From Escherichia phage vB_Eco_AMO_3701M: a DNA stretch of 45,294 nt. The stretch lies in sequence record PQ474795.1; one strand, given 5' to 3'. Below are positions 10,230 through 10,975 of this stretch, in pieces. The notes under the pieces were generated by a model. It was not told where the DNA came from. It made no database searches and saw nothing but the letters and a program-made list of their open reading frames with translations. Each line of letters starts with the position of its first letter. The stretch's first letter is position 1. The position numbers and the translations under genes are program-made.

Positions 10230-10844
10230 ATGGCGAAGACTAAATCAGAGATGTTCTCCCTTATCGGTCCGAAGCTACCGGACAACACGACCGGTGCAAT
10301 CACGCCAGCTAAATTGCGCGGCGTACTTACGCAGATGGCAGACTCGTCTATTTACGCTAATCCAGGGGTTAAAGAGGTTGAAGTCCTCCGCGCTGCATCG
10401 ACCGTAGCACAAGCGCCCACCGCAAGTAATACGGCATTGCAGTTAACTTTCGGCTCCGCTCAGGGAAGTGCGTCTGGCCCGGTAATGATTAATGCCGCTG
10501 GGCTTGTTACGTTCAACACCGCGGGCAACTACGCCGTTCGCATCAAGTTACAGGCGGGGCGTACTGGCGCGAGCGGGACGTCCATCCTGTTATCGCGCAT
10601 TTTAGTAAACGGCGCTCAGTACGGCTCGCCCGCCGCTACTAAACTGGTTAGCGCCGATACCACAATCCCGATTGAGTCTCGCGTCGTTATTAACCCGACC
10701 GCAGGCCAGACGTTTGCCGTTCAGATTATGCGGGATAGCGCCGGGAGTAACTTCGGCGGCGTATACCCGCAAGCGGCTACGGTAACTGCATGGGGCACAG
10801 CACCATCTGCGCTACTGGTTATTTCGAGACTGGAGGCTGCGTAA
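10230..10844 (+). CDS. structural protein, function unknown
   Basis: 204 aa Gly/Ala/Thr-rich, beta-rich-looking ORF in the neck gene block. Confidence 0.5.
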   Translation: MAKTKSEMFSLIGPKLPDNTTGAITPAKLRGVLTQMADSSIYANPGVKEVEVLRAASTVAQAPTASNTALQLTFGSAQGSASGPVMINAAGLVTFNTAGNYAVRIKLQAGRTGASGTSILLSRILVNGAQYGSPAATKLVSADTTIPIESRVVINPTAGQTFAVQIMRDSAGSNFGGVYPQAATVTAWGTAPSALLVISRLEAA

Positions 10845-10975
10845 TGCGAAAAATAATTAATATGTGGATTAACTCTGATTTTTTGTGGAAGTACGAATTT
10901 TTGGTATCAGTGTTTGCGCTGGTATCAACAACAGCTCTAATTATATTTTTAGCGGTTTGCGGGGAGTCAACATGA
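10844..10975 (+). CDS. small membrane protein (43 aa)
   Basis: ATG 10844 (TAATG overlap); hydrophobic helix LVSVFALVSTTALIIFLAVCG; markedly AT-rich; track 10790..10975 same frame. Confidence 0.45.
   Translation: MRKIINMWINSDFLWKYEFLVSVFALVSTTALIIFLAVCGEST

Follow-up and report, generated by a model that had tools for sequence, protein, structure and literature searches.

A putative membrane mini-gene carried as a 129-bp cassette in the late structural operon of a virulent Kagunavirus

ORF43 at the boundary between a 204-aa gene and Hc1

A stretch of 45,294 nucleotides (nt) from Escherichia phage vB_Eco_AMO_3701M (PQ474795.1), which is referred to as a whole as the window, was analysed around ORF43, an open reading frame (ORF) of 43 amino acids (aa) situated between a 204-aa gene and the head-closure gene Hc1 (Table 1). 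Taken together, the evidence makes it fairly probable that ORF43 is a genuine translated accessory mini-gene, carried as a 129-bp plug-in cassette at this boundary of a virulent Kagunavirus and specifying a putative membrane regulator. A siphovirus of the Guernseyvirinae/Kagunavirus type, Escherichia phage M01 (OR061069.1), proved to be collinear with the window. Kagunaviruses are small siphoviruses dependent on the O-antigen or on a capsule, which were handled as virulent in the BASEL work (PMC11990801), and neither an integrase nor a CI-type repressor was found among the 104 annotated features of M01. Moreover, the DNA of ORF43 matched nothing in 5,426 complete E. coli genomes or in plasmids, and a prophage or plasmid origin was rejected on these grounds.

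The local gene order is the head-tail adaptor Ad1, the 204-aa gene, ORF43, Hc1, and the genes for tail completion, tail terminator and tail tube. The first-pass annotation had placed ORF43 between two neck or structural genes. This stood for the downstream neighbour, Hc1, but not for the upstream one, which belongs to a family with no assigned function, gives a weak match to BclA-C and is named a C1q domain protein by one source. The translational coupling claimed for both ends was found on reading the sequence: the TAA stop codon of the 204-aa gene (10842-10844) shares one base with the ATG of ORF43 (10844-10846), and the TGA of ORF43 (10973-10975) overlaps the ATG of Hc1 (10972-10974). The ribosome-binding site of ORF43 lies within the last codons of the 204-aa gene, and that of Hc1 is supplied by the cassette itself. 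No promoter-like or terminator-like sites were detected from 10022 to 11439 in a scan confined to the sigma-70 and intrinsic-terminator consensus, the nearest convincing terminator being located downstream (Table 1). Since there is no nearby promoter or terminator and both ends overlap the adjacent genes, ORF43 is a cistron internal to the late structural operon and coupled by overlap to its neighbours.

Table 1. Features at and around the ORF43 locus, in window coordinates
Feature	Position	Strand	Remarks
Ad1	9718-10227		first gene of the local order
Upstream 204-aa gene	10230..10844	+	phrog_3614; C1q/BclA-C-like
Antisense ORF	10819-11001		60 codons; antisense to ORF43
GGAGG Shine-Dalgarno	10832..10836	+	ORF43 ATG 7 nt downstream
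TAATG stop/start overlap	10842..10846	+	left border of inserted cassette
129-bp cassette	10844-10972	+	missing from empty-slot relatives
ORF43 coding sequence	10844..10975	+	43 aa + stop; protein MRKIINMWINSDFLWKYEFLVSVFALVSTTALIIFLAVCGEST
Motif W-x-NSDFLWKYEF, juxtamembrane	10865..10900	+	codons 8-19
Predicted transmembrane helix	10898..10960	+	codons 19-39; FLVSVFALVSTTALIIFLAVC
12-bp hairpin inside ORF43	10901-10928		UUGGUAUCAGUG-UUUG-CGCUGGUAUCAA
GGGGAG in final ORF43 codons	10961..10966	+	Hc1 ATG 5 nt downstream
Head-closure Hc1, 119 aa	10972..11331	+	ATGA overlap with ORF43; phrog_161/17193
Nearest convincing terminator	13415-13434		downstream
Lysis cassette	42969-43966		holins and lysin

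Composition and hydrophobicity

ORF43 had been described from the letters alone as AT-rich relative to the flanking genes and as encoding one hydrophobic helix, and computation bore out both statements. Its G+C content (GC) is 0.348, against a mean of 0.507 (standard deviation 0.057) over 132-nt windows (z = -2.8), only 0.8% of which are as low, and against 0.56 and 0.51 in the flanking genes on the 204-aa and Hc1 sides, respectively. Codon usage is also distinct, with a GC at third codon positions (GC3) of 0.37 compared to 0.58 in the structural genes of the phage (binomial P = 0.005) and a codon adaptation to the phage's own genes in the 6th percentile. Among the 104 annotated coding sequences (CDSs), ORF43 has the lowest GC and is the most hydrophobic, with a best 19-residue Kyte-Doolittle mean of 2.58 (residues 20-38), and AlphaFold2, used as a single-sequence model, predicted a continuous helix from residue 2 to residue 41 with a pLDDT (predicted local distance difference test) of 91. 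Furthermore, T occupies the second codon position in 20 of the 43 codons. Open frames of the length of ORF43 arise in 3.1% of mononucleotide shuffles; openness alone is only modestly significant, and it is the comparative evidence that decides the gene status. Two other small hydrophobic ORFs were noted in the replication/early region, both on the minus strand, at 29293-29424 (43 aa, Kyte-Doolittle maximum 2.06) and 32436-32654 (72 aa, maximum 2.16).

A diverged homologue and selection on the protein

An exhaustive HMMER scan covering 1.84 billion protein representatives returned one credible match to ORF43, a 46-aa protein named P0001 (E = 5.9e-6, 56% identity). The second match, P0002, was set aside as spurious, being a repeat protein of low complexity with 1074 aa. 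Two independent metagenome contigs encode P0001, which occupies the same slot, between a 207-aa C1q-like gene and a 119-aa Hc1, with ATGA overlaps on both sides of its ORF. The flanking proteins of this phage are 72-73% identical to those of the window, and the contig GC is 57%. Despite this distance, ten consecutive residues (N10-F19) are identical between ORF43 and P0001. Over the whole gene, the proportion of synonymous differences (pS) is 0.78, which is saturated, and that of nonsynonymous differences (pN) is 0.35, while in codons 8-19 pS reaches 1.0 and pN falls to 0.08; for comparison, Hc1 of the same pair of phages gives a pN of 0.19 and a pS of 0.74. Such saturated synonymous change alongside a motif pN of 0.08 bears the signature of a genuine translated protein gene with a juxtamembrane motif that matters, and the ORF43 protein is under purifying selection that is strongest on W-x-NSDFLWKYEF.

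ORF43 and P0001 form a tiny family of their own, both members having 43-46 aa, the motif W-x-NSDFLWKYEF followed by a transmembrane helix ending in TAALI(I/V)FLAV, and, in Guernseyvirinae-like phages, a place with the C1q-like gene on one side and Hc1 on the other. The first-pass annotation had named an indistinct composition together with an unconserved or untranslated ORF as the outcome that would refute its proposal; instead, the GC is distinct and the ORF is conserved in P0001 under selection. Regarding composition, the P0001 gene has a GC of 0.44 compared to 0.56-0.61 in its flanks, and its GC3 (0.59 vs. 0.66-0.70) is nearly ameliorated. Since the GC3 of ORF43 in the window is still low, its low GC probably reflects in part the amino-acid composition and, in the E. 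coli phages, in part a fairly recent arrival. As an additional observation, the P0001 phage carries an extra 53-aa ORF (MKLTLKNRLMLCWEVLTTRSGHANTAQEKQLSTFIRGYEAGMRDVRLEGEARK) between Hc1 and the tail-completion gene (L088, 1294-1455; L089, 1010-1171), two genes that overlap directly in the window, so that another cassette slot is present in the same operon.

These comparisons bear on whether ORF43 might be a functionless or selfish passenger, that is, a T-rich open insert retained as the carrier of the Hc1 ribosome-binding site and of the coupling, which only a precise deletion could viably remove, and spread by hitch-hiking or drift. In favour of this, the cassette bears that site and shares bases with the genes on either side, peptides resembling transmembrane segments arise by default from T-rich DNA (PMC7005711), the frame is open in 3% of shuffles, and no phenotype is visible in the published BASEL plating data. 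However, ten consecutive motif residues were kept despite saturated synonymous change (pN 0.08 vs. pS 1.0), P0001 was retained in a phage with flanks about 72% identical, four of the five polymorphisms within the cassette are synonymous, and the reading frame is disrupted in none of the 16 natural carriers examined. A mere passenger is therefore regarded as unlikely.

Another explanation is that the element is not a protein gene at all, the insert acting as an internal promoter, an RNA structure or a translational spacer, or serving an antisense ORF. What speaks for this is a 12-bp hairpin inside ORF43, with a marginal folding z-score of -1.88, and the open antisense frame (Table 1). The hairpin holds four of the five natural polymorphisms, of which three keep the pairing through G-U and one breaks it, and it is not conserved in P0001, where the amino-acid motif is kept but the hairpin sequence is not. 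Neither an Rfam match nor a promoter-like site was found, and a structured RNA or promoter element was rejected. As for the antisense ORF, it has a TTG start, crosses both cassette borders into conserved genes and opposes the direction of the late operon. A non-coding or antisense element is thus very improbable.

An ancestrally empty slot and its occupants

To establish how often ORF43 is present, a total of 75 loci anchored on both flanking genes were considered, comprising 71 IMG/VR contigs, three GenBank phages and the window. The slot between the 204-aa gene and Hc1 was empty in 60 of them, including every locus with an Hc1 less than 89% identical (Jerseyvirus-like Salmonella phages), and the blastn spans concurred. 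Since the slot is empty in most loci, and in all the distant ones, the empty state is ancestral, and ORF43 is an insertion relative to most related phages, as had been supposed. The alignment of carriers and non-carriers shows a difference of exactly 129 bp, from start codon to start codon. In Bas72, the empty junction reads GGAGGCTGCCTGATGAGC, with the stop of the 204-aa gene overlapping the start of Hc1, and the GGAGG at the 5′ side of the slot is kept in the empty-slot genomes, in which it serves Hc1.

The occupied slots hold four unrelated cassettes. Besides ORF43 (129 nt, hydrophobic with one helix), these are the K1G type (96 nt), a different ORF located in phage K1G at the insertion point of ORF43 and encoding a 32-aa hydrophobic peptide (MNKFTCGVVFGFLTAVVLHSYGVLLTLQEVLK); basic36 (111 nt), encoding a 36-aa basic hydrophilic peptide in Bas70, Bas71 and Bas74; and a 339-nt cassette encoding a Cys-rich protein of about 112 aa in RP180-like phages. 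Although unrelated in sequence and differing from ORF43 in predicted properties, the other three share with it the insertion point and the overlap coupling, with T(A/G)ATG on the left and ATGA on the right, a purine-rich Hc1 ribosome-binding site at the end, and a low GC (0.35-0.46 in all four vs. 0.51 for the genome). The boundary is a polymorphic slot, ancestrally empty and now holding one of at least four unrelated low-GC mini-ORFs.

The region matched 101 Escherichia and 11 Kagunavirus GenBank records. ORF43 was carried by seven records (M01, CR01, UTEC10, Bas73, Bas75, Bas76 and KMB35), being annotated as a hypothetical protein in all of them, while 29 records had the K1G-type cassette and five the basic 36-aa cassette. 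Moreover, 99 blocks of public assemblies index the exact 43-aa protein, and all ten places examined corresponded to the same slot. ORF43 has been seen in this slot only, unlike the K1G-type family, which also appears at a second locus in Salmonella phages: a homologue (MNKFFWGVAFGFMLAVVIHSFSALKTLQQVFG), 55-61% identical, follows a NinH-like gene and precedes the terminase in Salmonella Guernseyvirinae (2501-2599 of locus L087, Salmonella phage vB_SenTO17, compared to 1326-1424 of locus L004 for the K1G cassette). With this homologue at a different locus, the K1G-type cassette is a conserved mini-gene family that changed its genomic position. In K1G itself, the 32-aa cassette is unannotated and falls in a 263-bp gap left by a truncated upstream gene call.

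Further variation was observed beside the slot. The tail-completion gene directly 3′ of Hc1 (window 11328-11828) exists in two forms of 166 and 131 aa, with a nucleotide divergence of about 36%, and both occur in ORF43 carriers, which represents a module swap beside the slot (loci L083, L093, L095, L097 and L099 at 1985-2380). In the K1G record, Hc1 and the tail-completion gene are annotated as a joined (frameshift) CDS. A second mini-gene slot lies at 9572-9724 of the window, between a 59-aa ORF and Ad1, and its product is a 50-aa Cys-rich, zinc-ribbon-like protein (CxxC...CxxC; phrog_7696, E = 6e-7). This mini-gene is absent from Bas73, Bas75, Bas76, UTEC10 and KMB35, and in K1G a mobE-like homing endonuclease takes its place just 5′ of Ad1.

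Recent horizontal spread of the cassette

The population analysis comprised 16 natural carrier loci, the comparison of the window with M01 being set aside. Only five of 128 nt were segregating within the cassette (four synonymous and one Leu to Met), compared to 42 of 150 and 27 of 150 in the adjacent 150-nt flanks (69/300, 23%; Fisher P = 2.5e-7) and 163 of 464 further upstream. In line with this, carriers diverged pairwise by a mean of 0.7% within the cassette, compared to 5-6% in the flanks next to it and 13% in the sequence further upstream. Neighbour-joining trees were built from 300 nt on each side of the slot. In the upstream-flank tree, carriers were interleaved with empty and other-cassette genomes, while in the downstream-flank tree KMB35 clustered with the empty-slot phages. 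The K1G-type cassette showed a like pattern, with low diversity relative to its flanks (4/95 vs. 27/150 segregating sites).

All the ORF43 copies in E. coli phages thus descend from a very recent common ancestor and reside in diverged and non-monophyletic backgrounds. Nucleotide constraint would not account for the low diversity, because P0001 shows that synonymous sites are free to change. Instead, a near-invariant cassette in non-monophyletic backgrounds indicates recent horizontal spread, the cassette having moved between diverged backbones by recombination.

Apart from this, the window and OR061069.1 were found to have the same length and coordinates and to differ at 3204 positions (7.07%), by substitutions only and with no insertions or deletions. 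The differences fall mostly at third codon positions, none of them inside ORF43, and are patchy, ranging from 0 per kb at 19-20k, 25-26k and 39-41k to 247 per kb at 23-24k. OR061069.1 exists in two independent public copies that do not differ, and the window may be an altered or alternate form of this record. Several essential genes are broken up into neighbouring pieces, namely those for the major capsid (two), terminase (two), the 62-kDa structural protein (two), helicase (three) and DNA polymerase I (six), at window coordinates 7895-8946, 1424-2676, 2689-4159, 26597-28023 and 29418-31628, which suggests frameshift errors in the underlying assembly, labelled 'partial genome'.

Family searches and plating data

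ORF43 belongs to no family in PHROGs, Pfam, NCBIfam or PADLOC and has no relative by PDB profile search, and no homology to known exclusion, defence or lysis families was detected in any of these. A word-indexed search of 5.8 billion proteins also gave no match. The exact protein is nonetheless present in that collection, filed under a representative that is the neighbouring 204-aa protein. Its 90%-identity cluster has 2244 members, mostly the 204-aa protein, and hides ORF43 from representative-based searches; this placement is probably a clustering artefact or due to bridging by fused gene calls. Searches of IMG/VR, the JGI metagenomes and the GTDB genomes with degenerate DNA patterns for the motif were likewise negative. 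A lipoprotein was considered and rejected, the criterion being a signal peptide followed by a lipobox [LVI][ASTVI][GAS]C in which the Cys is conserved: ORF43 offers only 'LAVC', which fits a lipobox poorly (Val at -1), cleavage there would leave a mature peptide of five residues, and the Cys is replaced by Ala in P0001.

Lysis accessory genes are embedded among head and tail completion genes in P2-like phages. By this token, ORF43 could be a late membrane peptide tuning the holin, either antiholin-like or as a holin helper, and thereby altering the latent period and the burst size. Its co-expression with the late genes and its single predicted transmembrane helix with a short acidic tail are compatible with such a role. 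On the other hand, it is not part of the lysis cassette, whose holins and lysin lie 32 kb off, it matches no holin or antiholin family, and it is dispensable in most relatives, all of which leaves a modulator of lysis timing a quite improbable function.

The BASEL phages Bas70-76 include three slot states, with ORF43 in Bas73, Bas75 and Bas76, basic36 in Bas70, Bas71 and Bas74, and an empty slot in Bas72. All seven are dependent on the O16 antigen and have an efficiency of plating (EOP) of about 1 on RexAB, PifA, Fun/Z and Tin (PMC11990801, S1 Data). On Old, the EOP is 1e-14 for Bas73, 0.006 for Bas76 and 0.03 for Bas75, compared to 0.036 for Bas74, 0.18 for Bas71, 0.76 for Bas70 and 0.79 for Bas72. 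The carriers therefore take the three lowest ranks, which would happen by chance in 1 of 35 cases (n=7, confounded by relatedness). A causal association was rejected, given the sample of seven, the phylogenetic confounding and the fact that Old is not a membrane system.

The same data weigh on a possible role in counter-defence, in which ORF43 would neutralise an abortive-infection or effector system that is bound to the membrane and set off by late structural proteins. Being accessory, horizontally mobile and recently swept, it has the profile of such a factor, and it is co-expressed with structural proteins, which commonly trigger these systems. However, carriers and non-carriers plate alike on RexAB, PifA, Fun/Z and Tin, the carriers are the three most Old-sensitive phages of the set, and no PADLOC or anti-defence family was matched. 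This role is also held to be improbable.

Comparison with morons and other small membrane proteins

The first-pass annotation had called ORF43 a moron-like insertion. Morons are defined by their own promoter and terminator and by expression from a repressed prophage (PMC3594210). ORF43 is extra DNA relative to collinear relatives (exactly 129 bp; 60 of 75 slots empty) and deviates in GC from both flanking genes, with a GC3 that departs from that of the structural genes. In contrast, the consensus scan gave it neither a promoter nor a terminator of its own, and expression from a prophage is not to be expected of a member of a group treated as virulent, the related M01 lacking an annotated integrase or CI-type repressor. 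Because the extra DNA and foreign composition were found, but the own promoter and terminator and the prophage expression were not, ORF43 is moron-like rather than a classical moron.

A close parallel is the superinfection exclusion gene gp15 of HK97 (Cumby, Davidson & Maxwell 2012, PMC3594210), which is likewise a gene for a small predicted inner-membrane protein, present as extra DNA with deviant GC among virion-assembly genes. Nevertheless, gp15 is flanked by a promoter and a terminator of its own and is active in the prophage, while ORF43 has neither, is translationally coupled on both sides and resides in a virulent phage, and no sequence similarity between them is detectable. Likeness was also seen to the thymine-rich de novo membrane peptides of Vakirlis et al. 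(2020, PMC7005711), which are, like ORF43, T-rich, transmembrane-like and taxonomically restricted. However, those peptides come from yeast intergenic DNA, and ORF43 is not brand new, since it has the diverged homologue P0001.

Among lytic phages, ORF43 is comparable to the receptor- or entry-blocking proteins T5 Llp, T1 Cor and T4 Imm/Sp as a small accessory protein predicted to be in the membrane, but differs from them in being late and placed beside neck genes. Those proteins are small envelope accessory proteins that shield the infected cell or the progeny; their genes lie next to receptor-binding genes or are expressed early, and Llp and Cor are lipoproteins, from which ORF43 is set apart by its poor lipobox and the Cys not kept in P0001. 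Finally, the regulators MgrB, AcrZ and MgtS have 30-50 aa with a single transmembrane helix, and they exert their effect by attaching to a membrane protein larger than themselves. ORF43 resembles this type in its size and single helix, with no homology to them.

By analogy with HK97 gp15 (PMC3594210), the best single guess for the function of ORF43 is superinfection exclusion, which the first-pass annotation had suggested next to host modulation and which is considered rather unlikely: an inner-membrane peptide would block the genome entry of related Kagunaviruses or of re-infecting progeny, in the manner of gp15 or T4 Imm. In addition to the position of a small predicted inner-membrane protein amid virion genes, the rapid spread through co-circulating relatives fits an inter-phage competition factor, and the niche is open, given that no exclusion strategy is recognised for virulent phages dependent on the O-antigen (PMC11990801). 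Weighing against it, ORF43 is unrelated to the PHROG, Pfam and NCBIfam families, including those of exclusion proteins, and without its own promoter it is expressed only with the late genes. Exclusion proteins of virulent phages, such as those of T4 imm and sp, act early. Moreover, ORF43 is present in only about 6% of the GenBank E. coli Kagunaviruses, and a soluble basic peptide and a Cys-rich protein are found in this slot as well, which makes the position uninformative on function.

Proposed mechanism

The favoured reading remains that of an accessory mini-gene encoding a putative membrane regulator. Each cassette reuses the upstream ribosome-binding site, brings a new one for Hc1 and keeps both stop/start overlaps, and in this way relies on the late structural operon for its transcription and translation, with no signals of its own. 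Given the recent common ancestor and the non-monophyletic backgrounds, the cassette has passed between co-infecting phages through homologous recombination in the flanks. The product is modelled as a long helix, of which residues ~19-39 would cross the inner membrane, leaving the N-terminus cytoplasmic and four residues outside; the net charge of ORF43 is +1 before the helix and -1 after it. The 18-residue aromatic motif would be placed at the cytoplasmic membrane interface, and one face of the predicted helix is rich in Ser, Thr and Ala, available for helix packing. By analogy with known small regulators, ORF43 may act late in infection, when its motif and this small-residue face would bind a partner in the inner membrane, of host or phage origin. 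As for the process affected, the ranking places first a block to the DNA entry of further phages, then the timing of lysis and lastly a membrane-bound defence.

Several points count against this reading. The case for translation, membrane insertion and a phenotype is built on sequence rather than on experiment, and the selection analysis uses a single pair, with one diverged homologue and a saturated synonymous divergence (dS). Considering the default of T-rich DNA (PMC7005711), hydrophobicity is a weak sign of membrane function. The topology depends on a weak charge asymmetry, and P0001 has -1/-1, with an N-terminal net charge of -1. Furthermore, the low diversity of the cassette could be due in part to related phages having been sampled, an exclusion factor expressed late would be awkwardly timed in a virulent phage, and the BASEL EOP values show no advantage for carriers against RexAB, PifA, Fun/Z, Tin or Old.

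Implications

Small accessory genes for membrane proteins are known to be scattered through the late operons of phages; ORF43 is of this kind and in this respect fairly ordinary. The plug-in architecture of the slot and its sweep-like diversity are neat, though hardly surprising where phage genomes are mosaic. The slot shows how, in a virulent phage, accessory genes with no transcription signals can join a late operon whose genes are tightly coupled, each cassette bringing a ribosome-binding site for the gene that it displaces. No part of phage genomes is less well understood than the small unannotated membrane peptides, and the natural slot states make the function of such mini-genes directly testable. 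In particular, Bas70-76 are well characterised, freely available, nearly isogenic here and present in three slot states (empty, basic peptide and ORF43), which amounts to a natural experiment.

A bolder view, considered rather unlikely, is that ORF43 represents a new family of late tail-anchored membrane peptides that give virulent O-antigen-dependent siphoviruses an edge over their siblings, for instance by blocking the genome entry of co-infecting or re-infecting Kagunaviruses at the inner membrane. If such a competition were at work, the near lack of variation among mosaic backgrounds would be the trace of a selective sweep still under way through the slot, and ORF43, as an exclusion or competition factor, would fill a gap in the biology of the O-antigen-dependent virulent phages, for which an exclusion strategy had not been recognised (PMC11990801).

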